DNA from: a bacterium
GTDB taxonomy: Bacteria > Cyanobacteriota > Vampirovibrionia > Gastranaerophilales > JBAXKC01
Assembly: GCA_037137535.1 (NCBI GenBank)
Contig: JBAXKC010000045.1
Location: 1-18,290 of the forward strand
Direction: 5' to 3'
DNA: 18,290 nt
Part shown: piece after piece, positions 79-18,105 of the stretch
Layout: the number at the start of each line of letters is the position of its first letter
Numbering within the stretch: the first letter of the stretch is position 1
Position numbers and translations under genes: made by a program
Notes under the pieces: model-generated
Database searches by the model: none
Told to the model about the DNA's origin: nothing
The model's input: the letters and a program-made list of their open reading frames with translations, nothing else

Positions 79-94
79 TATTTTATTGTACGAG
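1..94 (-). mobile_element. IS110-family left end (non-coding, bridge-RNA-bearing), truncated by the window edge
   Basis: Minus strand reads ...TTTGCTAA-CT-cg-TACAAT, with a CT core at 94-93 and a -10 hexamer at 90-85. The flanking repeat copy stops exactly at this core. It pairs logically with the right end at 18104-18124. Confidence 0.75.
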
Positions 95-236
95 TTAGCA
101 AAAACAACAACATAGCAGCTCTTAACCGCTACTGGCTTCTTTTCATACTCTTTGAGCGGTTTTGCACAAAATAATTTTTGAGAAAAGAAGCAAACCGCTT
201 ATGGGCAGTGGGCTTAGTTGAAGCTTTTGCCAAAAG
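93..236 (+). repeat. Dispersed multi-hairpin repeat, segment 1 (3' half only)
   Basis: Contains AAAAACAAC...CTTAACCGCTACTGGCTTCTTTTC...GAGAAAAGAAGCAAACCGCT, shared with the other copies. The 5' half is replaced by the IS110 end. Confidence 0.9.
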
Positions 237-253
237 AATTCATATGATTTAAG

Positions 254-1465
254 CTAAACCTTATAAATAACATTACCATCCTGATTGTATAAATTATTAA
301 TACTATCTTTCATTTTTTGGTCTGGAAAATTCTTGTATTCCTCTTTATACATATTGAAATAAAGCCCTTTTTTATCGGCAAGGTCAAAGATATACTTGTT
401 TCTTACGTCAATTATAAACTTTTTGCCGTCCTCAGCATTGTATTCCAGCCATGAATGATCTTTATTTATCATTAAAGTAGTATTTATACCGCTTAATTGT
501 GCCGTTGCCTTTAAAAACATTGACTGCACCAGACAAGTAGCGACCGAAGCAGGTAAACCCATACTACCTGTTGAAAATTCACCTATATCAACAATACGGC
601 ACGGATATTTTTTTTGCTTGTAGTCTGAATAATATATAAATTTGCCATTCATAATCAAGCCGTTTTCATTGTGTTTTGAGGTATGAATAATCCCGTTTTT
701 CTCATATTCATTAGTAATAAGTTTTGGCTTAAAAAAGTCTGTTTCTGTTTCAAGCAAAGCCTTTGCAATGTTTATTGAAGCTGATTTATCTGTATTTTTT
801 AAGTTTTTGTTTAACTTTTTTGACGCTTCAACCAAAACCTTATCATCTTCAAGATTTATTCTTACTTTGGAGAGAAATTCCTTCCCTATATCATCGTTTT
901 CGGTTAATTTCATCACCCCGCTTGGATAAAACGGCTTGTAGGTAAAAACAAACCCCTTCTCAAAGTCGTCAGACAGCTTAGCAACAGCTTTCCTTCCATC
1001 AAGAACGGCGAGCCTGTTATAATACAGATCGGACATCTGTTTAATCGGTGCATCGGCATTGATGGCATTTGCCTGCTGTAATAACTGCAAACGGATTGAA
1101 GTTATTCTTGCTTTGTTTGAATTATGAATCTGCACCTTCTTCGCTCTGTCTTCACCAGTTGTATTATCTTTTGCTATGTATTTATAGCGTTTATTGTTCA
1201 TTTCCGCCTTATCAACATAACTCAAACCCTTATTTGCAAGCCTATTTTTGGTTTTATAGTCAGTTTTTTCTTGTGAGGCTTTATTTAGATAAGTTTCAGC
1301 CTTATCCAAAGCTTGACCAACTTCCTTTTCTATAATATTTAACTTTGTCTCAACCGTTACATCTTTATCTTCAAGTATATTTAAAGTTTCTCTGTTTTTC
1401 TCGATAATTGCCTTTGAAGAAGCAGACTGCTTAAATGAAATATAAGGATTAGTTAATAAATTCAT
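254..1465 (-). CDS. Hypothetical protein with helical N-terminus and C-terminal transglutaminase-like (Cys-His-Asp) domain
   Basis: 403 aa ORF. The motif ATCLVQSMFLK...GI...DHSWLEY...FIIDV has the spacing of a transglutaminase-like triad. Confidence 0.6.
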   Translation of the reverse strand: MNLLTNPYISFKQSASSKAIIEKNRETLNILEDKDVTVETKLNIIEKEVGQALDKAETYLNKASQEKTDYKTKNRLANKGLSYVDKAEMNNKRYKYIAKDNTTGEDRAKKVQIHNSNKARITSIRLQLLQQANAINADAPIKQMSDLYYNRLAVLDGRKAVAKLSDDFEKGFVFTYKPFYPSGVMKLTENDDIGKEFLSKVRINLEDDKVLVEASKKLNKNLKNTDKSASINIAKALLETETDFFKPKLITNEYEKNGIIHTSKHNENGLIMNGKFIYYSDYKQKKYPCRIVDIGEFSTGSMGLPASVATCLVQSMFLKATAQLSGINTTLMINKDHSWLEYNAEDGKKFIIDVRNKYIFDLADKKGLYFNMYKEEYKNFPDQKMKDSINNLYNQDGNVIYKV

Positions 1466-1496
1466 TGTAAAAACCTTTTAAAAGCTAGTATAATCA

Positions 1497-1575
1497 TATA
1501 AAACAGCTAAAGAAAAAAGTTGCTGTAAGTAAATTTATTATTACATAACAATTTTTGCAATGATCTTGTTTTAAA
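1497..1575. promoter_or_regulatory. Two divergent copies of the bipartite motif RCAAYT-N12/13-TGTTTT
   Basis: GCAACT-N12-TGTTTTATA on minus (1523-1497) and ACAATT-N13-TGTTTTAAA on plus (1548-1575), each 30-40 nt upstream of a start codon. Confidence 0.6.
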
Positions 1576-1611
1576 TTATTGAGCATTAAATATCTTTTTA
1601 AGGGTTTTTAA

Positions 1612-2718
1612 ATGATTGAAACGACAAATCTTTCTAAAATAAATTTAACCTCCCAAAAACAGATAAAAAAGCCTTCTACTATAGATAACAAAAGAAATCT
1701 TTCATCTAAACTGAATTATAAGAAGCAATTAAAAAAAGACGAGTATTCTCTTTCTCAGAAACAGGCTCAAAAAACAGGTATAACTTTAATAATTTTAGGA
1801 GCACTCTTTCTAGCCGCAGTAGGAACAGCCCTATATTTTAAAAAGGCTAAAGACGCCATAATGAAAATATTTAGAGGCGGTAGGGCTGCAATTTCTTGGG
1901 AAAAAAGAGTGCAAACAACACTTCAAAAGTCATCTAATACAGCTATATCTGAATTTGCATCAAAAATAAAACTTACACGCTCTGGAAAAATTGAAGTCGA
2001 AGATAAAAAGAAATTACTGCAACTTATTAAGCAGGAATATATAAAAAACAACCTTACTCGTGATGAATCAAACGAGTTATGTAAATTGGTACATCCGCCA
2101 ATAGCAAGAAAAACAACTGTAACTAAAACCATTAACTACGAGCCATACAATAATTATTACCATAATGACTACTACGATGGATATAATAGGGGACGACTTG
2201 AAGAACAAGTTGATAATATGCGTTATGACTGGATGGAAAATGAACACAGATCGCAAGAAGTTCAACCAGCAAAACAAACGATTTTATTGAATAATAATGA
2301 GCTTTGGAATGAAACGAATAAGACCGCAGAAAATACATTAGGATACGATGCTCCGCATGTTAACGAAGCTCTTAATGATATTGATTCTTCAAGCACTCAA
2401 TTAGATGATTTCCTTAATGAAAGGGAAGATTATGATAATTTTGATGATATATTCAGCAGTTCAGAGGAATCAAGGGATTTTAACTTTGAGAACTCAAGCA
2501 GTTACGAATCTGACAACTTTTCGAACGATTCAAATTACCCAAACGATTATGATTATAACAATTATTCCGATAACTCATATTCTTCAGACTATAACAGTTC
2601 ATCAGATGACTCAGGCAGTTGCCTTTTTGGAAACTCAGACAACTCCGGCTCTGATAACTCTTGGCTCTCTGACAGTTCAAGTTGTTATGACAGTTATGGC
2701 TCGGATAATTCTTGGTAA
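1612..2718 (+). CDS. Hypothetical single-TM protein with basic N-half and acidic Ser/Asp/Asn/Tyr-rich tail
   Basis: 368 aa ORF with TM segment GITLIILGALFLAAVGTALYF and a low-complexity C-terminus. Confidence 0.8.
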   Translation: MIETTNLSKINLTSQKQIKKPSTIDNKRNLSSKLNYKKQLKKDEYSLSQKQAQKTGITLIILGALFLAAVGTALYFKKAKDAIMKIFRGGRAAISWEKRVQTTLQKSSNTAISEFASKIKLTRSGKIEVEDKKKLLQLIKQEYIKNNLTRDESNELCKLVHPPIARKTTVTKTINYEPYNNYYHNDYYDGYNRGRLEEQVDNMRYDWMENEHRSQEVQPAKQTILLNNNELWNETNKTAENTLGYDAPHVNEALNDIDSSSTQLDDFLNEREDYDNFDDIFSSSEESRDFNFENSSSYESDNFSNDSNYPNDYDYNNYSDNSYSSDYNSSSDDSGSCLFGNSDNSGSDNSWLSDSSSCYDSYGSDNSW

Positions 2719-2781
2719 TCAACCATTGTTAAAAAATACACAAAGATAAAAGTTAAAATAATTCATTAATTATTTGTTTTA

Positions 2782-3008
2782 ACAAGTAAATTATCTTCGT
2801 TGCTTTACGGTTTCGATGTCTGAAACCATCGACTAACTTTTTATTTTTTGAAAAATAAAAAGAGCCAGCAAAAACAAAAATATTGTTGGTTCTTTACCGC
2901 TACTGGCTTCTTTTTTTACTCTTTGAGCTTTTTTGCACAAAATAATTCTTGAGAAAAGAAGCAAACAGCTTGTGGATGGTGGAACCTTGGTTAAAGCCTT
3001 TGCGAAAA
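2782..3008 (+). repeat. Dispersed multi-hairpin repeat, copy 2
   Basis: GTAAATTATCTTCGTTGCT...CCATCGACTAACTTTTTATTTTTTGAAAAATAAAAAG...ACCGCTACTGGCTTC...GAGAAAAGAAGCAAAC. Confidence 0.92.
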
Positions 3009-3032
3009 CTATATTTTTAAAGACAAAAACCG

Positions 3033-3070
3033 TTTACAGATTTATTTTTAAAATCAAATAAATCTGTAAA
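3033..3070. repeat. Perfect 15-bp inverted repeat (operator or hairpin)
   Basis: TTTACAGATTTATTT-N8-AAATAAATCTGTAAA. Confidence 0.7.
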
Positions 3071-3136
3071 TCCTTTCATAATAAACCTTTAATGCTTTCA
3101 GACATGTCAAAACACATGTAAATAAATAAATTCGGC

Positions 3137-3164
3137 GCAATTTTTCAAGTCGAAATGTTTTTAT
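3137..3164 (+). promoter_or_regulatory. Bipartite motif GCAATT-N13-TGTTTTTAT
   Basis: Exact match, 48 nt before the ATG at 3212. Confidence 0.65.
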
Positions 3165-3211
3165 AAATATATAGAGGATTTAATAGTATAAGAGTTTTAA
3201 AGGGGATATGA

Positions 3212-3520
3212 ATGGCTGGAATTGGAGCAATCGGCGGCGGCGGATCAAATGATGAATTATTAAAAAAATTAATGCAAAAACAACTGGCACAAGGTTCAGG
3301 ACAAGTTCAAGGCGACCAAAAGGCACAAGGTACGCAACAAGCTCAAGGAGCTAACCCATTTTCAGGCACATTGCCACCCCAAAAACTTGATGAAAGTATC
3401 TTTAAAGACAATAATAAAGTAAAAAAAACAGACGAACCTACTCAAGGCGGCTTAAATCAAAATATGCAGGCTCTTGAAGAGATGATGAAAAAAGAATTTA
3501 TGAAAATGAACGTGGCTTAA
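3212..3520 (+). CDS. Hypothetical Gln/Gly-rich small protein
   Basis: 102 aa ORF with an AGGGG Shine-Dalgarno-like sequence upstream. Confidence 0.8.
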   Translation: MAGIGAIGGGGSNDELLKKLMQKQLAQGSGQVQGDQKAQGTQQAQGANPFSGTLPPQKLDESIFKDNNKVKKTDEPTQGGLNQNMQALEEMMKKEFMKMNVA

Positions 3521-3525
3521 AAAAG

Positions 3526-3648
3526 AATCTCTCGTGACATAGAAAGCACAAACAATCGCACAGCGGAAATGGCTGACAGACTTTGGGGAGCGTATATAAG
3601 GTATGACTATCGCCTTATCTGTTTGATAAGACTTTTACGCGAGAGATT
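3526..3648. ncRNA. Candidate structured RNA of unknown class
   Basis: Closing stem AATCTCTCGTG/CGCGAGAGATT with inner hairpins CAGC/GCTG and ATAAGGT/GCCTTAT. It is GC-richer than its flanks and followed by a terminator. Confidence 0.35.
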
Positions 3649-3660
3649 TTCCAATTTAGC

Positions 3661-3691
3661 AAAAGAGGAGTTTTATCAAACTCTTCTTTTT
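3661..3691. terminator. Bidirectional intrinsic terminator
   Basis: AAAAGAGGAGTTT-tatc-AAACTCTTCTTTT between convergent genes. Confidence 0.75.
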
Positions 3692-3716
3692 GTGTTTATT
3701 TAAAAAAAACAGAAAT

Positions 3717-4781
3717 TTAGGCCGCCAAATTAGCGTCAATAATATCGAGAGCCGATGAGATTCCCAGAGCCTCATCGGCTAATTTAAACTTTACGTCCCC
3801 CACAGAGCCGCCTGACAATTGCCCAAGTACAGTCATAAGTGAGTAAGCAAGGCATACTAAACCAACATGGTTCGTTAATTTATTCCAGCTTTGCATCATC
3901 AAATAATCCAGTCCCAGCTTTTGTTTAGCCTCTCGGTGAAATACCTCAACTTGCCATCTCTTTAAATATCCGACTTTCAATTCCTCGCTTGTAAGATTAA
4001 TATTGTTTGAGCCGATAAAATATTCCTCGTCTTGGTGGCAAAATCGAAGTATTTTAACCTCTCCTTTTATGTCATTAAGCTTACAAATTACACTTTCGTC
4101 ATAATTTAATCCTAATTTCTGCAATTGAGCATTATTTTTAGCAATTTGAACCTTTCTATTCCTTTTCAATCTTGTAAACCAAGTAAATCCTTTCCTATTT
4201 AGCCACTTTATGATTTTCTTTGAGGCAAAAAAACTATCGAACATTATTGTCTTTACAGGGATTTACATCAACAAAGACTTTTTAAGTAAATTTAAAAATA
4301 TATCAGTTTTTGTCTTGTATTCACGCTTGTTTACCAGTTTTGAGCTAACCCAAATGCTGAAATCAAGAGGAATATATATTTTCCCATTTGTCAGTCCTAA
4401 GCTAATAAGTTCATTTTGAGGCATGTTTTTCATCCCTCTTATGCTTTTCAATCCTTTTTTTGTTATTCTATTTTTCGCATATTGCTGCCTCAAAGGCGTT
4501 CCATCCACAACAAGATAGAAATTTAAGGCTGTAAAGATTGGCAATATTAGTTTTGCCAATTGATAGAACAGGTTTTTCCAGTTTATCTTTGATTCTAAGA
4601 AATCATAAAGCGGCCATTTGCTTCTTACTTTAGTATTTTTAGATATTCTATTCGTGCTAAAGCTTCTCTCTTGATAAATTAATCCTATTAAATATTTTCG
4701 GAATGAAATTTTATCGATATCATTTAAAACAAATGATAGAATGTAATTGAGAAATATATTTAGCCAAAATGATTGGCTCAT
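3717..4781 (-). pseudogene. DDE transposase (IS701-like) interrupted by one in-frame TAA at 4265-4263
   Basis: The two ORFs are in the same frame (...LM*IPVKTIMFDSFF...). Catalytic motifs VVDGT, MFDSFF and RWQVEVFHREAKQKLGL are present. Confidence 0.85.
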
Positions 4782-4787
4782 AATTAA

Positions 4788-4823
4788 AGCCTCCTGTTTA
4801 ACTATATTGTGATTCAGGAGGCT
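4788..4823 (-). promoter_or_regulatory. Hairpin sequestering the transposase Shine-Dalgarno (AGGAGG)
   Basis: AGCCTCCTG-N18-CAGGAGGCT, whose 3' arm on the minus strand is the SD just upstream of the ATG at 4781. Confidence 0.65.
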
Positions 4824-4900
4824 ACTTTATTTCAACTCGTTTTTGATTATCCTAATCTTCTGATAAAAATATTAACATAAGTTCAGCATAACGTTTTTAG

Positions 4901-5122
4901 TAAGAACCCTCCATCAACCCCCAACACTAACGAGCGGCTGGCTTCTTTTCTTACTTTTTGAGTTGTTTTACATAAAATAATTTTTGAGAAAAGAAGCCAG
5001 TAGCGGTCAAAAACTGCCATGTTTTTGTTTTTACTCCCTTTTTATTTTTCAAAAAATAAAAAGGGAGTTGATGGATTTATACATCGAAACCGTAAAGCAA
5101 CGAAGATTATTTACAGTTAAAA
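4901..5122 (-). repeat. Dispersed multi-hairpin repeat, copy 3 (loop of last hairpin inverted)
   Basis: Reverse complement of copies 2 and 4, except 4952-4986, which is in plus orientation. Confidence 0.92.
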
Positions 5123-5147
5123 GAAAAAAATTTATGATTAAAACCCC

Positions 5148-6794
5148 TTAATGAACACCAAGGTTTTGAAGTTCATGAACTATTTCTTTAAAGACATTAG
5201 TCCAATCTCCGTGGACTTTTTGCCTGAATATTCTCATTGAAGAATAATAAGGGGAGTCTTTTCCTTTGGTAAACCATCTCCAGTTTGGGGCGTATGGGAG
5301 CATAAGCCATGTTTTAACTCCTAAAGAACCGGCAAGATGTGCAACTGAGGTATCAACAGTAATTAATAAATCAAGTCCCATTATAGCGGCGGCAGTATCA
5401 TCAAAAGAAGTAAAGTGAGAGCCAAGAGATTCAACACTAAAGGAAACTTCTTCAATCTGATTTACACCAGAGCCAACAAGCAAAGAATAAAGCATTACAT
5501 CACTAACGTCAGCTAAAGAATTAAAAGCGGAAAGGTGTTCAACACTTTTTAGTCTATCTCTTAAATCATTGTTTTTAGAATGCCATACAAGTCCTATTTT
5601 CTTAGAGGAATTATTGAAATATTTTTTTGAAAATTCATGAACTTTTTTAGAATCGGAAATTAAAAAGCCATCCGCAAAAGGAAATTTTTCTTCCTTGAAA
5701 AACCAGACAAGGCAAAATAAATTTGTTTGGAGGTCATATTTTACGTCAGAATAATCAAAAGACTGGCCAACAACTTGAACATCGGGAAAACTTCTTTTAC
5801 AAATATCCAAAAGCCCATCCTGAACTTCAAAAATAACTTTTGCACCTGCCTTTATTAAAAACGGAATATATCTTGCATATTGAATAACATCACCGTAACC
5901 GGCTTCATAATAGACAAAAACGGTTTTGCCTTCAAGGTTTCCGCTAAAATCATTAAGATGCTGAACCTTTAAATCTTTTCTTTCAAAAAGAAGCCGTCTG
6001 TATTTAAAATATTCCCAACCGTTTTCAAGGTCGCCTTTTGCAAAATAAGCCCTTGCAAGGTTAAACTTGTATCCATCATAGGACGGATTTAATTTAACGG
6101 CACTATAAAAGCTCTCTATGGCCTCATCGATCATATTTAAATCAAGGTAAGAGTTCCCCGAATTATTATAACTTTCTGCACAATCAGGGTTATTTTCAAT
6201 TGCTTTTTTATTGAAATACAGGGCTTTTTCGAGTTCATACAGGTCGTAATAAAGTCCGGCAAGATTTATGCAAGTAGCCGCACTTGTTGAATCGAGTTCA
6301 TAGGCTTTCAAATAACAATCAAGTGCTTTCTTAGGATTATCAGCTCTTGATAATGCAAAGCCAAGATTGAAATAATCAAGAGCAGTCTCTTTTTCTTTAC
6401 ACACTACCTCAAAAACCTCAGCAGATTTAACAAAATAACCGGAGTAAACAAGTGCTGTTGCATAATTTTGCAAAACATCAAAATCTTCACCAACTAAATT
6501 CAAATATGCCTCATAATACTTTACTGCCTTCTCAAAGCGTTGGAGGTCAAAGCTTATATCCGCAACTTGTTTTAATGCTTCAGCATCAATATTATTCTTT
6601 AAATATTCTTCTAAATAACCAAGAGCAATCTCAAGCTCCTGCGTTTGAACATGTAAAACTCCAATAAAAAACAAAGCCTCAGAATTTGACGGTTCAAAGT
6701 TCAAAACTTCAATATATAATTGCTTTGCCTGCCTAAGATCGCCCTGTTTATGCGAATCAAATGCAGTTGCAAGTTTTTGCTCAACAATTGACAT
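5148..6794 (-). CDS. TPR-repeat protein with C-terminal GT9-like glycosyltransferase domain
   Basis: Multiple TPRs followed by EAGYGDVIQYARY, IGLVW and DTAAAIMGLDLLITVDTSVAHLAGSLGVKTWLML...NWRW...SPYY. Confidence 0.9.
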   Translation of the reverse strand: MSIVEQKLATAFDSHKQGDLRQAKQLYIEVLNFEPSNSEALFFIGVLHVQTQELEIALGYLEEYLKNNIDAEALKQVADISFDLQRFEKAVKYYEAYLNLVGEDFDVLQNYATALVYSGYFVKSAEVFEVVCKEKETALDYFNLGFALSRADNPKKALDCYLKAYELDSTSAATCINLAGLYYDLYELEKALYFNKKAIENNPDCAESYNNSGNSYLDLNMIDEAIESFYSAVKLNPSYDGYKFNLARAYFAKGDLENGWEYFKYRRLLFERKDLKVQHLNDFSGNLEGKTVFVYYEAGYGDVIQYARYIPFLIKAGAKVIFEVQDGLLDICKRSFPDVQVVGQSFDYSDVKYDLQTNLFCLVWFFKEEKFPFADGFLISDSKKVHEFSKKYFNNSSKKIGLVWHSKNNDLRDRLKSVEHLSAFNSLADVSDVMLYSLLVGSGVNQIEEVSFSVESLGSHFTSFDDTAAAIMGLDLLITVDTSVAHLAGSLGVKTWLMLPYAPNWRWFTKGKDSPYYSSMRIFRQKVHGDWTNVFKEIVHELQNLGVH

Positions 6795-6847
6795 TAATAG
6801 CCCTTAACATTCCTATAACCTAGATTTTATCACATTCCTATAAACAC

Positions 6848-7078
6848 GTCATGCTTAAATTGTTTCAGCATCACCTTAAATTATTGGATTTTTACCTCTG
6901 AAATTTGTTCGTTGCTATACGGTTTAAATATCTAAAGCCATCGACTCCCTTTTTATTTTTGAAAAATAAAAAGGGAGTAAAAACAAAAACATGGCAGTTC
7001 TTGACCGCTACTGGTTTCTTTTCTGACTCTTCGAGTTGTTTTACACATAATAATTTTCGAGAAAAGAAGCAAATCGCC
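6848..7078 (+). repeat. Dispersed multi-hairpin repeat, copy 4, preceded by a GTCATGCT..TTCAGCATC REP-like palindrome
   Basis: REP-like unit at 6848-6872 and core from ~6891, including hairpin ACTCCCTTTTTATTTT/AAAATAAAAAGGGAGT. Confidence 0.92.
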
Positions 7079-7283
7079 TTATTTGAATTTACATTTATTA
7101 ACATAAACACAATAAACAAGTAATTAAACACCCATTAACTTCTTTGATAAGAATAAGTCTTAATTTGAATAATAAACAAAAGGAGAATTTATTTAAAAAC
7201 AAGCGGCAAAAGAGATCAAACATATCGTAACAGACTAAAGGATTTCAGGGAACATACAAATTATGTTTCCTTTCGCTGTTAAT

Positions 7284-7655: not shown

Positions 7656-8333
7656 TTATAAATTCCATTTCTCTTTTAATTTTTTCGCAAAATAACTACT
7701 CTGTGCAAAAGTTCCAAGATTTTCAATATAGTCGATTGCCTGTTGTTTGTCAAAATCTAAAGGCGATCCTATTTCCACCTTTTTCTGTTGTTCGATATAA
7801 GTTTTTGTCTGTGCTATACGTGTTTTTTGTTCAAAAGCTCCTTTTCGTTTTATATGCTCCTCAATATTTGAAATAGTACTCTCCTTTTCGGCCTTTTTAT
7901 TTTTTCTAAAATCGGAAGAGTTATTTTTATAGTTACTATTATATTGTTTGTCTGACATTTTGACACCAAGTAGTGTGTCAGATTGACAGCTTTCAGGTGC
8001 CATATCGACAGCGCCAAAAAAAATAGCGGTAAAAGCATATAAGTTATTATTTCCGTTTTTTGACTTTACGATAAGACGTTTTTTAATCAGCTCATTTATT
8101 GCTCTGACTACTGATCGCTCACTTATATTTAAATTCTTTGCCAGATACTCCTGAGAAGGGAATACAACAGATTTCTCGGGATTATAATGAGAAGCTAGAC
8201 CTATTAATACAAGCATTTGAGTAGGATTTAATTCAAACTGTTTAGCTGCGCCTGAAATATAAAGACGTTGCGCAAGGTTAAATCCGTTGATTTTAACCTT
8301 TTTCGGTGATGGTTTATAGTTTTGTGAATACAT
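7656..8333 (-). CDS. Winged-HTH replication initiator-like protein (HTH_36-like N-terminus)
   Basis: LNPTQMLVLIGLASH...VFPSQEYLAKNLNISERSVVRAINELIKKRLI...NNNLY, with an AGAGGAG SD and an iteron-like tract just after the HTH. Confidence 0.75.
   Translation of the reverse strand: MYSQNYKPSPKKVKINGFNLAQRLYISGAAKQFELNPTQMLVLIGLASHYNPEKSVVFPSQEYLAKNLNISERSVVRAINELIKKRLIVKSKNGNNNLYAFTAIFFGAVDMAPESCQSDTLLGVKMSDKQYNSNYKNNSSDFRKNKKAEKESTISNIEEHIKRKGAFEQKTRIAQTKTYIEQQKKVEIGSPLDFDKQQAIDYIENLGTFAQSSYFAKKLKEKWNL
7953..8011. repeat. Three iteron-like repeats inside the rep-like gene (candidate origin)
   Basis: TGACATTTTGACAC (7953), TGTCAGATTGACAG (7976) and TGCCATATCGACAG (7998), spaced 23 and 22 bp, next to an AT-rich tract at ~7894-7949. 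Confidence 0.6.
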
Positions 8334-8485: not shown

Positions 8486-8514
8486 TTGCAATTTAATGCG
8501 CCTTCGGTTAGAAT
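8486..8514 (+). promoter_or_regulatory. Sigma70-type promoter for an antisense RNA
   Basis: TTGCAA (8486-8491)-17 bp-TAGAAT (8509-8514). Confidence 0.65.
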
Positions 8515-9537: not shown

Positions 9538-9550
9538 TGCTTTAAAAATC

Positions 9551-9810
9551 ATCATTGTGAGCGTAATGAACAATCGCCTATATTATTTGGCTTCACAAGT
9601 AAATTATCTTTATTGCTCAATGTTTTCGATATCTAAAGCCATCGCCTTCCTTTTTATTTTTGAAAAATAAAAAGGAATCAAAAACAAAAATATTGAAGTT
9701 CTTAACCGCTGTTTGCTTCTTTTCTTGCCCTTTAAGTTCTTCTTCACAAAATAATTTTAGAGAAAAGAAGCAAACAGCTTGTGTGTCGTGTGTCTTGGTT
9801 AAAGTTTCAC
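9551..9810 (+). repeat. Dispersed multi-hairpin repeat, copy 5 (full length with (G/A)TCATTG REP-like head)
   Basis: ATCATTGTGAGCGTAATGAACAATCGCC...TTCCTTTTTATTTTTGAAAAATAAAAAGGAA...GCTGTTTGCTTCTTTTCT...AGAAAAGAAGCAAACAGC. Confidence 0.92.
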
Positions 9811-9863
9811 AAGTAAATTTTTATCTAAACGTAAAAAATATAATTTGATAAGTGAGCTTGTTA

Positions 9864-9891
9864 GCAATTTACTCAAATCGTTTGTTTTTAT
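9864..9891 (+). promoter_or_regulatory. Bipartite motif GCAATT-N13-TGTTTTTAT
   Basis: Exact match, 52 nt before the ATG at 9943. Confidence 0.65.
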
Positions 9892-9942
9892 ATGGATATA
9901 ATTTGCTGGGACGGTATTTATTTGGGGAAAAGGGAGTAAATC

Positions 9943-10476: not shown

Positions 10477-10533
10477 TTTTGTTAAATAATACGTCATTCT
10501 ATAGTAAACCCGTGTAGGAAATTATTACAACTC

Positions 10534-10568
10534 AAAAAATCGCTGATATTGAGCCATCAGCGATTTTT
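10534..10568. terminator. Bidirectional terminator
   Basis: AAAAAATCGCTGAT...ATCAGCGATTTTT between convergent genes. Confidence 0.8.
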
Positions 10569-10586
10569 ATACGTTAATGAACTAAA

Positions 10587-11162
10587 TTAATTTACGGTAT
10601 AAGTTCCTATTTTCAAAGAGTGAACAATTTTAGGGTATTTGTCTAACCCATACAGCTCAACATATTTAATATTGCTGTTTTTCCCGTTTGTAATGACATA
10701 AGTGTATTTATCGCCTCGATAAACATTGATTGAAGTAGGTATACCTCTTGAATTTCCTAATACTTTGGCTACTTCTGCCGTTGAATTATTAAAGTCTTTA
10801 CCAGTTTCTTCACCAAGTACCGCACTGATAATCGAGTTAAGTGCTTCATCTTTTCTTGATGTGCCAATATTTGCACCATCAATTTTTATTATTTCTCTGC
10901 TGATAACCATATCGGGACAGCTTATATGAGCCGTAAATGAAACCTGCGCATCATTTAAAAGAAATTCTTTTGAATAGGGCATCCCTTGTTTTCCATCAGC
11001 ACAAAGTGCCGCATTTTTTTTGTTAATATTTTTTAAATAAGCCGTAGTTTTAGCCCATTCCTGAAATTTTGTTTCGTTCATGTTAGGTAAAGAATACGCT
11101 GCATAAGCAATGCCCGATACAAAAAAACAAGTTAAGACAGTTTTTGATAGTGCGTTAAACAT
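10587..11162 (-). CDS. Hypothetical exported protein
   Basis: 191 aa ORF with signal-peptide-like N-terminus and a GGGGAGG SD. Confidence 0.8.
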   Translation of the reverse strand: MFNALSKTVLTCFFVSGIAYAAYSLPNMNETKFQEWAKTTAYLKNINKKNAALCADGKQGMPYSKEFLLNDAQVSFTAHISCPDMVISREIIKIDGANIGTSRKDEALNSIISAVLGEETGKDFNNSTAEVAKVLGNSRGIPTSINVYRGDKYTYVITNGKNSNIKYVELYGLDKYPKIVHSLKIGTYTVN

Positions 11163-11212
11163 TTAGCCCTCCCCCTTAATCTTATTATTGCTTATTTTTA
11201 TAAAAAAAGTAT

Positions 11213-11488
11213 TTATTTGCTTTTTTTTCTGAAATCACCGTAGGTAACATTTTTATAATATCTTGAGCTTTTTGAATTGTTAGTGTTTCCGCCGTTATCT
11301 CTGGTTTCTTGTCTTGAATTATTATATCCGCCACTGTTTGAACTGGAATTATCAGACCAACTATAAGAATATGACTTAGAGGTGGAAGATTTTGACCCTA
11401 GATCCATTGCAGAGAAGGCTAAAGCCTTTGATGTTGTTATTAACAATACAAATAATGATAATAATAATCTTTTCATGTATAAATTCAC
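11213..11488 (-). CDS. Small exported Ser/Asn-rich protein
   Basis: 91 aa ORF with signal peptide MKRLLLSLFVLLITTSKALA and an AGGAG SD. Confidence 0.75.
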   Translation of the reverse strand: MNLYMKRLLLSLFVLLITTSKALAFSAMDLGSKSSTSKSYSYSWSDNSSSNSGGYNNSRQETRDNGGNTNNSKSSRYYKNVTYGDFRKKSK

Positions 11489-11502
11489 TCCTGTAAAACA
11501 AT

Positions 11503-11529
11503 AATGGCAGTTTACAATAAACTGCCATT
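11503..11529 (-). terminator. Perfect 12-bp hairpin after the CHAP gene
   Basis: AATGGCAGTTTA-caa-TAAACTGCCATT. Confidence 0.6.
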
Positions 11530-11573
11530 GAGTGAATTCATATATTTACTATTTATCTAATAGCCGACTAAAA

Positions 11574-12209
11574 TTAAGCGACAAGGCTAGTTGAATTTGT
11601 TCTGTATTTGTCCATTTTAACAAAACCGTGAATACTACTGTCTCCTGACTTGTATGTTTTTTCTCTTACGGCATTAGAGCTATTTCCTTCAATTGTGTGT
11701 ATAGTTCCGTCGGGATCTACGGATTTAACAAGTCCGATATGTTTACTGCCCTCTGATCCAAATACAATGCAATCACCTGGCTTTATGCCGATTGAAGTGT
11801 TTTGCTTTGCATAGCAGCCATTTTGTTGTGCCCATTCTCTGATTTGGCTTACTGCTGCTTTATAATTTTTTCCACCGTTATATCCCCAAGGGCATACGCC
11901 GCCATTGGCTTTTTCCCAGATGTGGCTTACGGTATCAGCACACCATGCTTCTTTTCTGCCTTGTGAAATTGACAGATAACTGCCATCTGCTTCATTTTTT
12001 CCTAGTAGTGACATGGCAATTTGAACGGGATTTCCGCCTGAGCCTTGAGCCCCTGCTATATTTGCTTGAGAAGGATTAAAAATTGAAGCTGTTTGAGGAG
12101 CAACATTACCGAACGGATTTGCGGCAGATGTTGCAGCGCCTGTATTTTGCAAAAGAGCCGCAGTTGTGTTGTTTAACTGTCTGGCTGTATCGTAAACAGT
12201 TGGAGCCAT
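11574..12209 (-). CDS. CHAP-domain peptidoglycan amidase/peptidase
   Basis: AWCADTVS...PGDCIVF...HIGLV...IHTIEGNSSNAV, with a low-complexity N-terminus and no Sec signal. Confidence 0.85.
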   Translation of the reverse strand: MAPTVYDTARQLNNTTAALLQNTGAATSAANPFGNVAPQTASIFNPSQANIAGAQGSGGNPVQIAMSLLGKNEADGSYLSISQGRKEAWCADTVSHIWEKANGGVCPWGYNGGKNYKAAVSQIREWAQQNGCYAKQNTSIGIKPGDCIVFGSEGSKHIGLVKSVDPDGTIHTIEGNSSNAVREKTYKSGDSSIHGFVKMDKYRTNSTSLVA

Positions 12210-12250
12210 AAATACCCTTTCACCTATAAGTTAAATATTTCCTTATATTA

Positions 12251-12278
12251 ATAAAAACAAACTGGGGTCGAGAATTGC
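12251..12278 (-). promoter_or_regulatory. Bipartite motif GCAATT-N13-TGTTTTTAT
   Basis: Exact match on the minus strand, 42 nt before the ATG at 12209. Confidence 0.65.
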
Positions 12279-12324
12279 CTAAAAGCATGTAAAATCAAGA
12301 AGAATTAGCTTTTAAAATAATTAG

Positions 12325-12550
12325 GAGATTCTCAATCAATTTCAGCATGACGATTTTCGTAAAAGAAAAAACGAAAGAACCACCACTAACGAGCGGTTTG
12401 CTTCTTTTCTCGAAAATGCTATTGTGCGAAGCCACTCAAAGAGTAAGAAAAGAAGCCGATGGCTTTAGGCCTCGAAATCATTGAGCAATGAATATAATTC
12501 ACTTGTGAAGCCTCATAATATAGGCGAAGGTTCGCTACGCTTGCAATGAC
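12325..12550 (-). repeat. Dispersed multi-hairpin repeat, copy 6 (middle hairpin deleted) plus a GTCATGCTGAA REP-like unit
   Basis: On plus, AGAAAAGAAGCC joins directly to GATGGCTTTAG. Head GTCATTGCAAGCGTAGCGAA on minus from 12550, REP-like unit at 12325-12351. Confidence 0.88.
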
Positions 12551-12564
12551 AGTTTTTTCTTTTA

Positions 12565-12598
12565 TAAAAAAAGAGGATTTTTACATCCTCTTTTTTTA
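12565..12598. terminator. Bidirectional terminator
   Basis: TAAAAAAAGAGGAT-N6-ATCCTCTTTTTTTA. Confidence 0.8.
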
Positions 12599-12603
12599 TG
12601 TGT

Positions 12604-12870
12604 CTATCCAATTAAATCAAGCCCTGCTTTTATTTGTTTTTGGTTCGGGTTTTCATTTAGTGCGGTAAAAATCTCACTTGCTTTATCTTTTAAAAAGCTG
12701 AAAACGGATTGTCCGTCGAGTAAATCGGGTTTTCTTACCTCTTCGGTTTCTCTTAAGAAACGGTCTCTGTTTTCTTGGCTGGAGAAAGCTAACATCTGAG
12801 CGGTTGGACCGTTTATTCCGCGAAAAGCCAGCTGCTTTGCGGCATAGTTATTTGTTATGTTTATATTCAT
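12604..12870 (-). CDS. Hypothetical small protein
   Basis: 88 aa ORF with an AGAGG SD-like sequence upstream and a terminator downstream. Confidence 0.75.
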   Translation of the reverse strand: MNINITNNYAAKQLAFRGINGPTAQMLAFSSQENRDRFLRETEEVRKPDLLDGQSVFSFLKDKASEIFTALNENPNQKQIKAGLDLIG

Positions 12871-12933
12871 TTTTTTCGATTGCCTCTTTATTTATTGATC
12901 TCTTCTTCCACGTTTAGGTGGGATGGTTTTATT

Positions 12934-13047
12934 AGTGTTTTATCTACACTCTTATATTATCATGCAAAAGTGTTTTGTCTACACTATTTAATAAAAAATT
13001 TATATTAAGGATAAATGTTAGAATTGTGTTAGTGTCAAAATTACACT
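12934..13047. promoter_or_regulatory. Three palindromic operators AGTGT-N7-ACACT
   Basis: Sites at 12934-12950, 12969-12985 and 13031-13047. The second overlaps a minus-strand TAGACA-16-TAATAT promoter candidate. Confidence 0.7.
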
Positions 13048-13412
13048 TGCTATAAGAGTATAGAGCTATAATGCATGCAAATAAAGCGTTTTAAACATAG
13101 CTTAATGTTTCTTAATGTTCAAGTTTTATTGGCGGCTTGAATAAATCAAGCTATAACAGGATAAAATACATGTAGGTATGGGCATAAAAAAAATATGCCC
13201 AGTTGGGGAATAGGTTAAATTTTTTGAAATGAGTTAATAATAATTGTTAACCCTATTTCTTAATTTTTTAACCAATCAACTATATTTTGAAAAATTTATA
13301 TTGATTTTACCCGAACAAAGACCCAGTTAAAAAACAGTTAAATAATATTTCTGTCCTTCATTGGATAGAAATTTTTTTTTATTAAATAAGTATGTAATAA
13401 AAAGTTTTAATT

Positions 13413-13473
13413 GTCATGTTGAGCGAAGCTGGATTTTATAATATTGAGATTCTTTGACATAGGCTGCAATGAT
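13413..13473. repeat. Degenerate REPIN-like GTCA... doublet
   Basis: GTCATGTTGAGCGAAGC...GAGATTCTTTG...GCAATGAT resembles the REP-like heads and tails seen elsewhere. Confidence 0.45.
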
Positions 13474-13716
13474 GCTTTGTGGGAAAGTTTAACTAATAAC
13501 CATATTTTACAGGCTTAATCACCCCAAAATCAGTAAAATGGTTTTATACGTTTTTTTATTTTAAATTTAGGTTTAATACTTAATGTATTGTTAAATATTT
13601 CATGGTTTTACTTTATAATGTTATTATTGAATTTCGCTTTATCTCCATAATGTAAGCATTTTGCTTGTTTAAAAAATCTTATTGCGTAAATCAGCGTTTC
13701 AATTTAAAATACAGAT

Positions 13717-14799
13717 ATGGATGAAATTGTAATATCAAGATTAAATATTGATGGTCATAACCCTTTCGGAGCGACTGCAGAAGAGTTGCTCGCTAATTCT
13801 TTGGATGAATCAGGACTAATTGCAGAGGATACTTTAATCAATAGTGTTTTAGCCCATGATTTATGTAAGTCTTTATTTAAAAAAAGAGAAGAATATAAAG
13901 AATCCACTAAAATTGGTAATATTTTAATTAAAAAACAAGTTATTACCGAGAAACAGCTACAAGAAGTGGTTGATCATCAACAAAAAAACCCTAATAAAAA
14001 ATTGGGTGATCTCCTTGTAGATTTGAATATGTGTCAACCTGATGATATAAGTTGCTGTCTTGATATTCAAAAGCAGATAAGATTTAACCATACTTCTCTT
14101 GATTACAATAAATTAAATAATTATCCGGCAGAAATAGTTAAAACTTCTATTGAAAAATATTTTCCTGTCGGGCAAAAACTTTCTATAAAGAGAACTTTTG
14201 CCAATGAAAAAGAAATGCACCATACTTATATTAAAGACCTTAATAAAAGGATGATGCTCATTGATTTGCCAACAAAGAACGGAGTTCCTATTCCTCTTTA
14301 TGAAAATAAGGAAATTGAAGTTACCAGTATTAATAAAGAAGGGATTTGGCTTGGTTCGGCAGAAGTTTTTAAAATTCAAAAAACAGGATTAATTGGTGCG
14401 TGGGTCCAATTGCCGAGTGTTCTGGAAAAAGTTCAGCGAAGAGAATATATGCGTTGGATTTTATCTTTCAATACTCAGCTTTTTGTTTATGGTGTAAATT
14501 CTAATCTTAGCAGTCCTGAAAATATTATAGATGTTGAAGTTAAAAACATTTCAGGCGGAGGAATTGCGATAATTTCAAAGCAAAAACTTCCACAGAATAA
14601 ATTCTTTTATATCAAAGTTGATTATAGAGATATTTCTGCGATGGTGAAAATTCAATTTATTCATGAACAGTTTGATGCGTATACTAAAAAAATGACCACA
14701 GGCTTTAAATTTCTTGAACTTGATTTTAAAACTATTGATAAAATTCATAAAATTGGCGTATTTAACGAGCTTCAAATGAGAAGAAAAGGTTTTATTTAA
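13717..14799 (+). CDS. c-di-GMP receptor: MshEN-like + YcgR-type N-domain + PilZ (flagellar brake-like)
   Basis: Tandem KIGNILIKKQVITEKQLQEVVDHQ and KLGDLLVDLNMCQPDDISCCLDIQ, plus PilZ motifs QRREYMR and NISGGG. Confidence 0.85.
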   Translation: MDEIVISRLNIDGHNPFGATAEELLANSLDESGLIAEDTLINSVLAHDLCKSLFKKREEYKESTKIGNILIKKQVITEKQLQEVVDHQQKNPNKKLGDLLVDLNMCQPDDISCCLDIQKQIRFNHTSLDYNKLNNYPAEIVKTSIEKYFPVGQKLSIKRTFANEKEMHHTYIKDLNKRMMLIDLPTKNGVPIPLYENKEIEVTSINKEGIWLGSAEVFKIQKTGLIGAWVQLPSVLEKVQRREYMRWILSFNTQLFVYGVNSNLSSPENIIDVEVKNISGGGIAIISKQKLPQNKFFYIKVDYRDISAMVKIQFIHEQFDAYTKKMTTGFKFLELDFKTIDKIHKIGVFNELQMRRKGFI

Positions 14800-14834
14800 T
14801 TATTCTAAATCAAGTTTAGACTGATATTTTATGA

Positions 14835-15086
14835 GAATTCAACTAAGAACCGCTCCAAATGAGCGGTTTGCTTCTTTTCTCAAAAATGCTTTTGTGCAAA
14901 ACGCCTCAACGAGTAAGAAAAGAATCAAGTGGCTGTTAAGAACTTCAATGTTTTGTTTTTGCTTATTTTTTATTTTTCGAAAAATAAAAAGTAAGTCGAT
15001 GGCTTCAAACATTGAAATCATTAAGCAACGAAGAAAATTTACAGGTAAAAACTCATAATCAAGGCGATTGCTACACTCGCAAAGAC
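14835..15086 (-). repeat. Dispersed multi-hairpin repeat, copy 7 (full length)
   Basis: Reverse complement of the consensus, with head GTCTTTGCGAGTGTAGCAATCGCC. Confidence 0.92.
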
Positions 15087-15105
15087 GGATTAAGAAAAAG
15101 AACGC

Positions 15106-15220
15106 AAAAAAAAGCCTATGGAAACCATAGGCTAGCAATCTCGGTAAACTTCAGGTCCTTGCGGACCTTGTCTATTTAGTGAGTTTAGAGAAACAAAACA
15201 TCTAATGAAAGATGTTCATG
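15106..15220 (-). ncRNA. Candidate ~115-nt sRNA
   Basis: Consensus promoter upstream, hairpins AACATCT/AGATGTT and AGGTCC-GCAA-GGACCT, and terminator AGCCTATGG-ttt-CCATAGGCTTTTTTTT. Confidence 0.65.
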
Positions 15221-15225
15221 TATCA

Positions 15226-15253
15226 ATTATATAATAAAAAGATATCGTGTCAA
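15226..15253 (-). promoter_or_regulatory. Sigma70 consensus promoter
   Basis: TTGACA (15253-15248)-16 bp-TATAAT (15231-15226). Confidence 0.7.
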
Positions 15254-15363
15254 ATGTTTATTCACATTATAATTGTCTGATTACATGTAAAATGATTGTA
15301 TAAATAAACTAAGTCATAATAGTATGTTTTCATGTGTATTTTGATGAATAAAATATGCTTTAT

Positions 15364-15397
15364 GGTTAATAACCCCTGTTATTAAGGGGGTTATTAA
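15364..15397. repeat. Palindromic cluster of three TTAATAA/TTATTAA boxes with G/C flanks
   Basis: GGTTAATAACCCCTGTTATTAAGGGGGTTATTAA, with 11-bp inverted arms. Confidence 0.6.
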
Positions 15398-15595
15398 TGC
15401 CTTGTTGTGCTTGCTTTTTACGCTGATTAATGAACTAAGATTATTTTTTTAAAAAACACTTCTAATGCCTCTAAAAATATGTTAAATTAAATAAAAACAA
15501 ACGAAGCAGTTTTTTTGTTTATTTAGTGTGAGAGTCTTTTGTGTAGTTAAGAAAAATATTTTCTATTTCATCTCGGTAAGGAAGGAGTCAATTTT

Positions 15596-17308
15596 ATGCA
15601 GTGGTTTAATGACCTTAACGTTCGTTCAAAAATGATGGTTTCAGCCTTTGTAAGTGCGGCATTTATAAGCGTTACCTGTTTTATGGTTTATGATGCTATT
15701 GCTTCAATTCAAAAGCAAAATTATTATTTAACGCATACAGTTCTTGAAGGAACAAGGCAGATTTCTCAGTTAAGCCGCAATATGGGCTATATTGAGTCTT
15801 ATACTTACGAAATGATTTTAAATCATGATTTGGATAAAATCGCTGAAGTCAAAGCAAAGCGTATGAAGTTAAGAGCTGATAATGATGCTATTTTAAAAGA
15901 TTTAGAGCAAGAACATGTTAAAGATTACAATAAAGAGGCTTATCAAACCTTTAAAAGTGATTTTATGAACTGGCGCAATGTTCAAGCTAAAGCAATGAAA
16001 TTTGCAGAGCAAAACAGAGATAATGATGCTTTTGAAACTTTTAACGGCAAGAATATAAATGTTAAAAAAGCTTCAGGCAGTATGGCGGCGTTAATTAAAA
16101 TTAATAATGATAAAGGTAATGAAGTTAATCAAAGTATAAAAAAAGAGATGGACTCTGCAATCTTTAAAATTATTGTTTTTACAATTTTATCGGCAATATT
16201 TTCATTTTTCATAAGTGCTATAATTTCATTAAAAATTGAAAAAGGTATTAAAGCAGTTGTTGACTCTCTCCATGAAGTTTCTAAAGGAAATTTAAAAATT
16301 AAGCAGCTTGATGTTAAAACTAAAGATGAAACGGGAATGTTGTCATTAGCATTAAATGAGACAGTAACTTCTTTAAAATCTTTGGTTCAGGAAGTGTCTG
16401 TTTCAGTTCAGGACATAACTGCAGGTTCTCAAGAGATGAATGCGGGAGTTGAGCAAACATCAATTGCTTCTCAACAGGTTTCTTTAAGCACTTCACAACT
16501 TGCAAAAGGTTCTCAGGAAATTTCTCAGAACGTTGAAGAATCTGCTTTCAGTATTGGAAAAATGAACTCGTTAATCCAAACAATCTCAGAAGATGCAATG
16601 GAAATTGCAGATCTGGGAAATGCAACTGAATCAACTGCAAATATCGGTAGAAATTCTGTAGAAAAAGCGATAACAAAAATCCATAATATTGAAAAGACTA
16701 CTGAAGGCATTTCTCAAACAATCAGTGAATTAGGAGCTTTATCTTCCGAAATAGGTCAGATTATCGATTTAATCAAGACAATAGCTGGACAAACCAATTT
16801 ATTAGCTCTAAATGCCGCAATTGAGGCAGCTAGAGCTGGCGAGCATGGTAAAGGCTTTGCAGTTGTAGCCGAAGAAGTTAAAAAACTTGCGGAACAGTCT
16901 GGCACTGCTACCGATAAAATCAATTCAATGATTAAAGAAATTCAATCTAAAACCCAACAAGCCGTTAAAGATATGAACAACGGTGTCGATGAAGTAAGAG
17001 AAGGTGTAGACGTTGTAAATGATGCAGGAGTTGCTTTAAATGATATAATTAAAGGAGTGCACGCTGCGAATAGTAAAATTCAGCATATAAATTCCGAAAT
17101 TAAATCTGTTGCGGATACTTCAGACGGTATTGTAAGAATGATTGAAAATATATCTGCCGTTGTTGAAGAAACTGCTGCAAGTTCTCAAGAAATTTCAGGT
17201 ATAGTCGAATTACAAACTACATCACTTGAAGAAATCAGTGCAAACACAAATACTTTAGCTAATATTGCAGAACATCTGTCAGAAAAAATTACTGTATTTA
17301 AGATATAA
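15596..17308 (+). CDS. Methyl-accepting chemotaxis protein (2 TM, 4-helix sensor, HAMP, signalling domain)
   Basis: [38 protein letters not shown], with a GGAAGGAG SD. Confidence 0.97.
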
Positions 17309-17321
17309 ACAGGAGTAGAAA

Positions 17322-17834
17322 ATGGCAAATCAGTTTTCAAAAGATGAAGAACTTCAGTTGATCGTTTTTAAATTAGCCACAGAGGAGTACACAGTTCCTA
17401 TAACTTGTGTTCAAGAAATTATTATGCCTCAAAAGCCCGTAAAATTGCCTAAAAGTCCTTCATTTGTCGAGGGTGTGATAAATTTAAGAGGTAAAATCAT
17501 TCCAATCATTGATGGAAGAAAGAAATTTGGAATGGAAACATCTGAAGCAACTAATGATACAAGAATAATGGTTTTAGAGTTTGATTTACATACTATTGGT
17601 GTAATTGTAGATTCTGTTTCAGAAGTAATTTATGTGAATACCAATGAAATAGAAAAATCTCCAATGGCGGAAGAGGATACCGTAGACTTTATCCAAGGGA
17701 TCTGCAAGTATAAAAACCGCTTGCTTATTCTAATTGACGGAGAAAAAGTTTTAAATACTCATGAGATTGAAAGTATAAAACAAACTGCTGCAATGGCAAA
17801 AAATATTTCTTCTATTGCAAATCAAATGGCATAA
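17322..17834 (+). CDS. cheW: Chemotaxis coupling protein CheW
   Basis: LIVFKL..EEY...VQEII...LPKSPSFVEGVINLRGKIIPIID...GVIVDSVSEV. Confidence 0.96.
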   Translation: MANQFSKDEELQLIVFKLATEEYTVPITCVQEIIMPQKPVKLPKSPSFVEGVINLRGKIIPIIDGRKKFGMETSEATNDTRIMVLEFDLHTIGVIVDSVSEVIYVNTNEIEKSPMAEEDTVDFIQGICKYKNRLLILIDGEKVLNTHEIESIKQTAAMAKNISSIANQMA

Positions 17835-17859
17835 ATTGAAGATTTAATTATGTGTTGTT

Positions 17860-17893
17860 AGGGACTGAAATTTATTCAGTCCCTGTTTGATTT
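17860..17893 (+). terminator. Intrinsic terminator of mcp-cheW
   Basis: AGGGACTGAA-attta-TTCAGTCCCT followed by a T-rich tail. Confidence 0.8.
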
Positions 17894-17942
17894 TTGGGCA
17901 AATTTTAAGAACTACAGTAAATAATTAAAATAAAGGAATAAA

Positions 17943-18105
17943 GTCATGCTGAAATTGTTTAAGCATCTCATAAAAACTATCATTGCGAGCATAGCGAAAC
18001 AATCCAAAGCATTTTTAGGTTTTTACATTTAGATTATCTTTGTTGCCGTATGATTTCGATGTCTAAAGTCATCGACTAACTTTTTATTTTTCGAAAAATA
18101 AAAAG
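17943..18105 (+). repeat. REP-like unit plus dispersed repeat segment 8 (5' half only)
   Basis: GTCATGCTGAAATTGTTTAAGCATC, then ATCATTGCGAGCATAGCGAAACAATC...CATCGACTAACTTTTTATTTTTCGAAAAATAAAAAG, cut at the AG core. Confidence 0.9.

Follow-up and report, generated by a model that had tools for sequence, protein, structure and literature searches.

A Modular, Palindrome-Rich Intergenic Repeat on a Gastranaerophilales Contig and Its Putative IS110 Insertion Site

Introduction

Bacterial interspersed mosaic elements (BIMEs), the clusters of repetitive extragenic palindromic (REP) sequences found in enterobacteria, are non-coding mosaics in which palindromic units and linkers follow one another in a set order, and elements of the REP/BIME type act at mRNA 3' ends. 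The BOX element of Streptococcus pneumoniae (boxA-boxB-boxC) spans a few hundred bases and is also modular, with its boxes in a fixed order and one module optional; it forms hairpins, lies between genes and has no known transposase. Here, we describe a repeat of comparable build on contig JBAXKC010000045.1 (GenBank assembly GCA_037137535.1) of a bacterium assigned to the Gastranaerophilales (Cyanobacteriota, Vampirovibrionia). The window of 18,290 nucleotides (nt) makes up the whole of this metagenome contig, which stems from an uncultured bacterium. On balance, and with considerable reserve, we assign the repeat to a new family of the BIME/BOX kind, mosaic, intergenic and rich in palindromes, which would be maintained at the DNA level.

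Mobile elements of the IS110 family are relevant to this locus in two respects. Passages of PMC11208160 describe one guide per sense for the left and right target, each including the core, and cite REP elements as targets of IS110/IS621 elements. For ISPpu10, another IS110 element, extracts of a recent preprint (bioRxiv 10.64898/2026.03.19.712850) present a stem-loop encoded in the target as a second gate of specificity.

Extent and Architecture of the Repeat Family

Pairwise repeat finding, MAFFT alignments and nhmmer recovered eight repeat segments, numbered c1 to c8 along the contig, which together comprise about 1,850 bases or roughly 10% of its length; nhmmer detected no further partial copy. 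The nhmmer profile was built from the same eight segments, and their recovery by it is therefore circular by construction. Independent of the profile are the pairwise matches (e.g., 242-nt arms at 74% and 173 nt at 80% identity) and the pattern GCTTCTTTTC-N30-45-AGAAAAGAAGC, which occurs at four sites (seven strand matches) and in none of 200 shuffled sequences. An earlier reading of the sequence alone (the original prediction) had placed eight intergenic segments at 93, 2782, 4901, 6848, 9551, 12375, 14835 and 17979, and the nhmmer bounds lie close to these positions. Their intergenic location was confirmed as well: none of the eight overlaps an open reading frame (ORF) with family support, and the single overlapping ORF of at least 80 amino acids, a frame of 99 codons that spans c7 (14839-15138, reverse strand), had no word-sharing candidate in one protein library and no phmmer match among 1.84 billion representatives.

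The core unit of about 235 bp consists of five modules in the fixed order M1-M2-M3-M4-M5, which may be preceded by REP-like heads. M1 (55 nt) contains a weak CGAT/ATCG or GGTTTC/GAAACC hairpin. M2, the A/T hairpin, is a near-perfect palindrome of 33-36 nt, in which T5AT5 and A5TA5 surround a centre of 1-4 nt and are themselves flanked on the outside by 4-5 variable nucleotides. It is followed by M3, an A-rich spacer of about 37 nt with the 3' end ACCGCTACTG, and by M4, a large hairpin of 57 nt composed of GCTTCTTTTCT, a 35-nt loop and AGAAAAGAAGC; the 11-bp core of its stem is lengthened to 13 bp in most copies by T:G and A:T pairs. M5 is a degenerate tail of about 45 nt. A REP-like head is present in four of the eight segments (c5 to c8), recognised by pattern in three and by alignment in c7, and a second small palindrome, ATGCTGAAA..TTTCAGCAT, occurs at three sites, namely 5' of c4, 5' of c8 and 3' of c6. 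The repeat thus combines distinct palindromic units with linkers (five core modules and two optional kinds of head), and it is intergenic and non-coding, as is typical of a BIME-type element. The modules had been described correctly in the original prediction, including the 35-nt loop; not every segment carries the full set, since the REP-like head is confined to half of them, c6 lacks the A/T hairpin, and c1 and c8 are partial.

Five segments count as full length, and four of them have all five modules. On the forward strand, c2 (2764..3015) comprises M1 (2777-2831), M2 (2832-2867), M3 (2868-2905), M4 (2906-2962) and M5 (2963-3008), and c5 (9540..9825) has a REP-like head (9552-9570), an M4 stem extended to about 18 bp and a 14-nt flanking direct repeat. 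On the reverse strand, c3 (4883..5136) is distinguished by an M4 loop (35 nt, 4952-4986) that is inverted relative to all other copies, and c7 (14820..15103) by a shortened REP-like head and a tail that forms a perfect 9-bp hairpin (14847-14869). The fifth, c4 (6839..7092, forward), is the sister copy of c3 and has a palindrome head (6851-6871) and no M5 tail. In c6 (12342..12564, reverse), which has a REP-like head at 12531-12549 and the second palindrome at its 3' end (12328-12348), M2 and M3 are missing exactly, with the junction CATCG/GCTTC. The two forward-strand segments nearest the contig ends are fragments. The 3' part of an element is represented by c1 (93..246), with the M3 spacer (98-134), the M4 hairpin (135-191) and the M5 tail, directly preceded by the end of an insertion sequence (IS). 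The 5' part is found in c8 (17965..18105), which has the palindrome upstream (17946-17966), a REP-like head (17980-17998), M1 and M2, and is followed by an IS end right after the A/T hairpin.

Two candidate functions within the element were considered and discarded. A small peptide could be read from the reverse strand of M1, where an ATG is present in seven of seven copies; these frames stop after 5-26 codons, and the variable columns by codon position number 6/5/3 over codons 2-10 (counted by eye), without an excess at the third position. A plausible -35/-10 promoter pair is found only in the heads of c5 and c6, and none is conserved across the copies.

Conservation, Mosaicism and Loop Inversion

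Conservation differs markedly between the modules. Pairwise identity ranges from 65 to 87% in M1, 82 to 100% in M2, 73 to 97% in M3, 77 to 91% in M4 and 33 to 67% in M5. Mean pairwise identity amounts to 0.90-1.00 in the palindrome arms, compared to 0.75-0.82 in the unpaired parts (M4 loop 0.77, M1 0.75) and 0.53 in the tail; the sequence of the arms itself is kept, not merely their ability to pair. Moreover, individual copies are mosaics of one another: in M2-M3, identity between c3 and c4 reaches 97-100%, compared to 73% in M1, and c5 and c6 share 87% identity in M1 and 77% in M4.

The M4 hairpin of c3 provides a further indication of events at the DNA level. Compared with six other copies, its loop is identical at 25-30 of 35 positions when flipped and at 10-13 of 35 as found, which points to a DNA-hairpin-type event; such a flip would exchange an RNA loop for its complement. 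The M4 stem has also been lengthened by different changes in opposite arms, in c3 (CTGG/CCAG) and in c5 (to about 18 bp).

Several features of the arrangement may be recorded here. The copies c3 (4987-5064) and c4 (6947-7024) form an inverted pair of 78 nt with 94% complementarity that flanks a gene for a TPR protein (5148-6794), and the neighbouring pairs c2/c3, c5/c6 and c7/c8 are likewise inverted. Recombination between inverted neighbouring copies could lead to inversion of the gene block between them. Furthermore, c5 is followed by a second M1 start, resulting in a 14-nt exact direct repeat, TTCACAAGTAAATT (within 9592-9607 and 9806-9821), which represents an incomplete tandem copy or, alternatively, a long duplication of the target.

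Relation to Described Families

The repeat matches no named family in the resources searched, in agreement with the original prediction. Three scans against Rfam yielded no match at the gathering threshold, the best scores being 29.1 bits against a threshold of 47 and 27.4 bits against 55; the remaining matches were to generic hairpins (miRNA precursors) and fell far below threshold. PLSDB gave no match for the whole contig in near mode or for c5 in distant mode, and neither did phage records for c5 in distant mode. Among the GTDB representative genomes, one exact pattern of the M4 arms retrieved 33 loci, all of them unrelated as judged by blastn and by eye. Literature searches with motif strings gave matches for one string only, in unrelated eukaryote papers among the matches listed, and searches for repetitive or palindromic elements in Melainabacteria produced nothing relevant among the matches listed.

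Eleven of the 33 GTDB loci belong to Variovorax (L001, L002, L003, L005, L009, L015, L021, L022, L023, L031 and L033; about 4975-5085). They share a GC-rich hairpin, about 60 nt long and almost the same in all of them, that has the same 10-11-nt arms by chance and lies inside longer inverted repeats. The hairpin represents a different family of repeats in that genus and is unrelated to the repeat on the contig.

The original prediction had classed the element as REPIN/BIME-like and non-autonomous. Its BIME-like character stands, as judged from the order of the modules, the optional heads and the absence of a coding signal. A REPIN in the strict sense (a REP doublet mobilised by a REP-associated tyrosine transposase, RAYT) is not supported: M4 does consist of two inverted arms of 11-13 nt separated by 35 nt (seven copies counted, 77-91% identical), and no RAYT/Y1 (HUH) transposase domain was found in the 17 ORFs scanned on the contig, where a nearby RAYT had been suggested as a check. 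Mobility was not borne out either. In none of six copies was an inverted match between the ends rarer than 23 in 300 shuffles, and flanking direct repeats did not exceed shuffles in five of the six; only the 14-nt repeat of c5 did so (0 of 300 shuffles).

An IS110 Insertion Site at the A/T Hairpin

Both termini of the contig are occupied by IS110-type ends. A left (5'), non-coding end extends over 1..94, which is the start of the long left end, and a right end over 18107..18290, both on the reverse strand. The right end encodes the C-terminus of the transposase; the ORF fragment corresponds to the last 30 positions of the IS110 model NF033542 (314-343 of 343, E 3.2e-4), and its stop codon (18107-18109) lies at the junction, so that the right non-coding end is minimal, as passages of PMC11208160 describe for the IS110 subgroup. 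The two junctions cut the repeat at one place with TT on each side (AAAAAGA-TT-IS and IS-TT-AGCAAAAAC). Accordingly, c1 contains only M3-M5 and c8 only the heads, M1 and M2: they are complementary halves, cut at one element position by IS110-type ends, and may represent a single copy into which one IS inserted on a circular molecule; alternatively, two copies may each have been split.

The left end also contains strings resembling target guides. On its RNA-sense strand, AAAAAGATT (9 nt, 45-53, reverse strand) and TTTGCTAA (8 nt, 36-43, reverse strand) are adjacent; the former equals the left flank plus core and the latter the reverse complement of the core plus right flank, and each includes the core TT. 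Both matches together were obtained in none of 3000 shuffles and in none of 758 other pieces of the window. The other copies of the repeat differ at exactly the guide-matched positions. In c2 (2832-2871) both matched flanks are retained and GCC replaces the core TT, which could reflect an insertion-resistant variant or plain drift. The IS lies only partly on the contig; its ends meet the repeat at one constant position, and its guide-like strings match both flanks and the core. It is credible that an RNA-guided IS110 insertion site lies where the A/T hairpin has its 3' base, and recombination at this site is inferred from the junctions and the guide match. The use of the repeat as an IS110 landing site, as originally proposed, is upheld by the common cut position of both ends, the NF033542 match and the guide matches of 9 and 8 nt.

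Going further, the repeat might serve RNA-guided IS110 elements as a dedicated landing pad and co-evolve with them, a notion that we find quite unlikely. In the otherwise invariant A/T palindrome, hypervariable positions are confined to the 3' base (4-6 bases) and the opposing bases of the 5' arm, exactly those read by the target guides and the crossover core. If the landing-pad notion were true, each copy would bear its own address, compensatory changes would keep the hairpin as a structural gate, and changes of the address (e.g., GCC for TT in c2) would admit or exclude particular bridge RNAs.

Position Relative to Genes and Genomic Context

Copies of the repeat are found in six of six long gaps between co-directional genes, and in none of three divergent (147, 595 and 847 nt) or two convergent gaps (hand-computed Fisher p about 0.002), with gap classes read from an ORF table in which several ORFs lack family support. 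All copies adjoin the 3' end of a gene. Terminator-like motifs are frequent in the window (34 matches compared to 9.2 expected from shuffles), and 11 of the 34 fall within the repeats, which make up about 10% of the sequence. These weak consensus matches are present in seven of the eight segments and absent from c5. In six of the seven a match lies on the strand of the incoming neighbour transcript, and in c3 on the opposite strand. The two long palindromes, M2 and M4, are themselves not followed by a T run.

Two non-coding stretches next to copies of the repeat are of separate interest. Directly upstream of the head of c7, the reverse strand harbours a candidate small RNA gene (15100-15253), with a sigma-70-type promoter that matches at 12 of 12 positions (15253-15226). 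A strong hairpin of the terminator type, together with a run of T, is located at 15133-15113. A stretch of 123 nt there folds with a z score of -5.0 (0 of 200 shuffles as stable) and has no Rfam match. Behind c2, the part of the gap that contains no repeat (3010-3211) also folds unusually well (z = -4.2) and contains a long, near-perfect hairpin at about 3040-3075, as seen by eye.

The contig has a G+C content of about 27-39%. Genes with family support encode TPR, HNH, EF-hand and CHAP proteins, a replication-type HTH protein (HTH_36, DnaD_N, RP-C), a PilZ/YcgR protein, a chemoreceptor, CheW and an IS701/IS4-like transposase. The nearest non-self relative of the TPR protein is 48% identical; its named matches, at about 30% identity, stem mostly from metagenome-assembled genomes of Melainabacteria/Gastranaerophilales, mixed with other phyla. 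The IS701/IS4-like DDE transposase (3717-4781, reverse strand), probably a pseudogene, is split into two ORFs of the same frame by an in-frame TAA (4263-4265); inverted ends of this remnant could not be recognised. The HTH protein (7656-8333, reverse strand), together with IS ends at both termini, points to a small plasmid or a mobile island as the source of the contig, its assembly presumably having broken off in an IS present in multiple copies. The protein had no match in PLSDB, and pairwise repeat finding revealed no overlap between the contig termini.

Competing Explanations

A repeat maintained at the DNA level accounts for the data as follows. Copies would persist and be homogenised by recombination or gene conversion between them, and hairpin-templated events within a copy would keep the long palindromes M2 and M4 intact. 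Motifs consisting of a hairpin and a T run may be read within mRNA 3' ends and act as terminators or stabilisers, similar to REP/BIME, and the 3' base of the A/T palindrome would be the insertion site of the resident IS110-family element with guide-like strings in its left end. A mobilising enzyme for new copies is not visible on the contig. Certain points weigh against this explanation. Copy counts and layout refer to this one contig of 18,290 nt, which limits what they say about mobility, copy number and spread; the GTDB scan covered a single pattern; the gap classes depend on the ORF table; and the terminator-like matches are weak. Some features resemble those of an RNA. In the five intact copies of the A/T hairpin, 12 of 16 pairs are invariant and 95% of the cells pair, and at the base two of the 16 pairs show compensatory changes (three cells; CG, UA and AU types). 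The covariation score was reached by six of 500 column shuffles, which would also fit selection on RNA; in five related sequences it is suggestive only. On the forward strand, T:G pairs are tolerated in two cells of M4, which is mildly RNA-like, and c7 has one C:A departure in M2. Finally, five of the eight segments are oriented as their upstream gene, or six, provided that the small RNA proposed upstream of c7 exists.

The compensatory changes, the T:G pairs and the shared orientation would fit a structured RNA family, i.e., a small RNA gene or a cis-acting element of 3' untranslated regions or intercistronic regions, which is transcribed from the forward strand and has its hairpins under RNA selection. 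The heads of c5 (by eye) and c6, which hold TTGNNA-N18-TATATT, fit this explanation, too, and the original prediction had contemplated it on the grounds that the base of the A/T hairpin covaries. That observation stands for two of the 16 pairs. It extends to CTAAC/GTTAG, which joins the 5' arm of c8 to the start of c1, only if these are one split copy (the G may be IS-derived), and it does not extend to c2, where CTAAC faces GAGCCAG, and the base is unpaired without a matching 3' arm. In M4, covariation does not exceed shuffles and the 11 pairs of the core are almost invariant, and changes in the small CGAT hairpin of M1 are mostly disruptive, as judged by eye from the alignment. Both strands fold equally well in six of six copies tested (z scores of -1.2 to -7.3 on either strand), three of the eight segments run antisense to the gene that reads into them, c2, c3 and c4 lack the promoter-like head, and no Rfam family came near its gathering score. 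The DNA-level element is favoured because folding is strand-symmetric, the loop of c3 is inverted, the stems of c3 and c5 are extended differently, and the M2 palindrome centres of only 1-4 nt are too short for comfortable RNA loops. With covariation confined to two pairs in five copies, none in M4 and no strand asymmetry, a structured RNA family is unlikely, and the evidence favours a DNA repeat whose hairpins are also transcribed over a dedicated RNA gene.

The size of the element, its lack of coding capacity and its multiple intergenic copies in both orientations are also compatible with a classical miniature inverted-repeat transposable element (MITE), that is, a non-autonomous cut-and-paste IS derivative that relies on a DDE transposase supplied in trans from another part of the genome. 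The direct repeat flanking c5 and the IS701/IS4-like remnant that adjoins c3 point in the same direction. However, five of six copies show neither terminal inverted nor flanking direct repeats above shuffles, the remnant offers no inverted ends for comparison, the per-module identity of 65-91% implies that there was no recent burst, and the ends of the element are ill defined, with tails that are 33-67% identical; a MITE origin is improbable on these grounds. An even less probable explanation holds that the repeats act as functional sites in the DNA of a plasmid or mobile island, either invariant palindromes to which a contig-encoded dimeric protein binds or recombination sites at the borders of gene modules that can be exchanged. 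The arms are indeed invariant rather than covarying, the palindromes are near-perfect with centres of 1-4 nt, a replication-type HTH protein is encoded on a possibly circular contig, and the copies, several neighbours being inverted pairs, delimit blocks of one to four genes. Yet, 235 bp with five modules is far above the size of an operator or recombinase site, the contig encodes no recombinase except IS transposases, neither the Rep-like protein nor the contig has a homologue in PLSDB, and the contig ends show no overlap that would point to a circle.

Significance and Comparison with Known Systems

Repeats of this kind shape genome rearrangement, transcript 3' ends and the landing of mobile elements, and the family described here comes from a poorly sampled lineage. 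It also offers a natural case of an IS110 guide that can be read together with its target and the neighbouring hairpin on one contig. Should the variable base of the hairpin be an IS110 address, the copies would provide a useful natural test set for the contribution of target structure and sequence to the specificity of bridge-RNA recombinases; otherwise, the element is an ordinary intergenic repeat, though dense and unusually modular.

Among known systems, REPIN/RAYT share with the repeat the inverted short repeats that form a long hairpin (M4) and the many intergenic copies. In contrast to REPINs, the repeat is far larger than a REP doublet, its copies have diverged, and the 17 ORFs include no RAYT. 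Small inversions associated with hairpins in non-coding DNA (e.g., PMC6824564) are known from plastomes, and a corresponding mechanism in c3 would be a parallel drawn from the sequence; common to both is a flipped loop between short inverted repeats. The targets of ISPpu10, as portrayed in extracts of the preprint, resemble the present locus in that copies of a conserved sequence between genes receive an IS110 element, with a stem-loop of the target beside the RNA-matched site; there, the stem-loop is GC-rich and the copies are identical, whereas the hairpin on the contig is A/T-rich and its copies differ at the matched positions.

BOX differs from the repeat in sequence and host, and in the tandem reiteration of its middle module; both have a fixed module order, an optional module (M2 and M3, missing in c6), hairpins and an intergenic location. 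Compared to BIMEs, the repeat is AT-rich and without sequence similarity, its units are longer (stems of 16 bp and of 11-13 bp with a 35-nt loop), and no RAYT was seen. Like BIMEs, it is a non-coding mosaic of palindromic units and linkers in set order, located between co-directional genes or at gene 3' ends, and a target of an IS110-family element, as PMC11208160 cites for REP elements.

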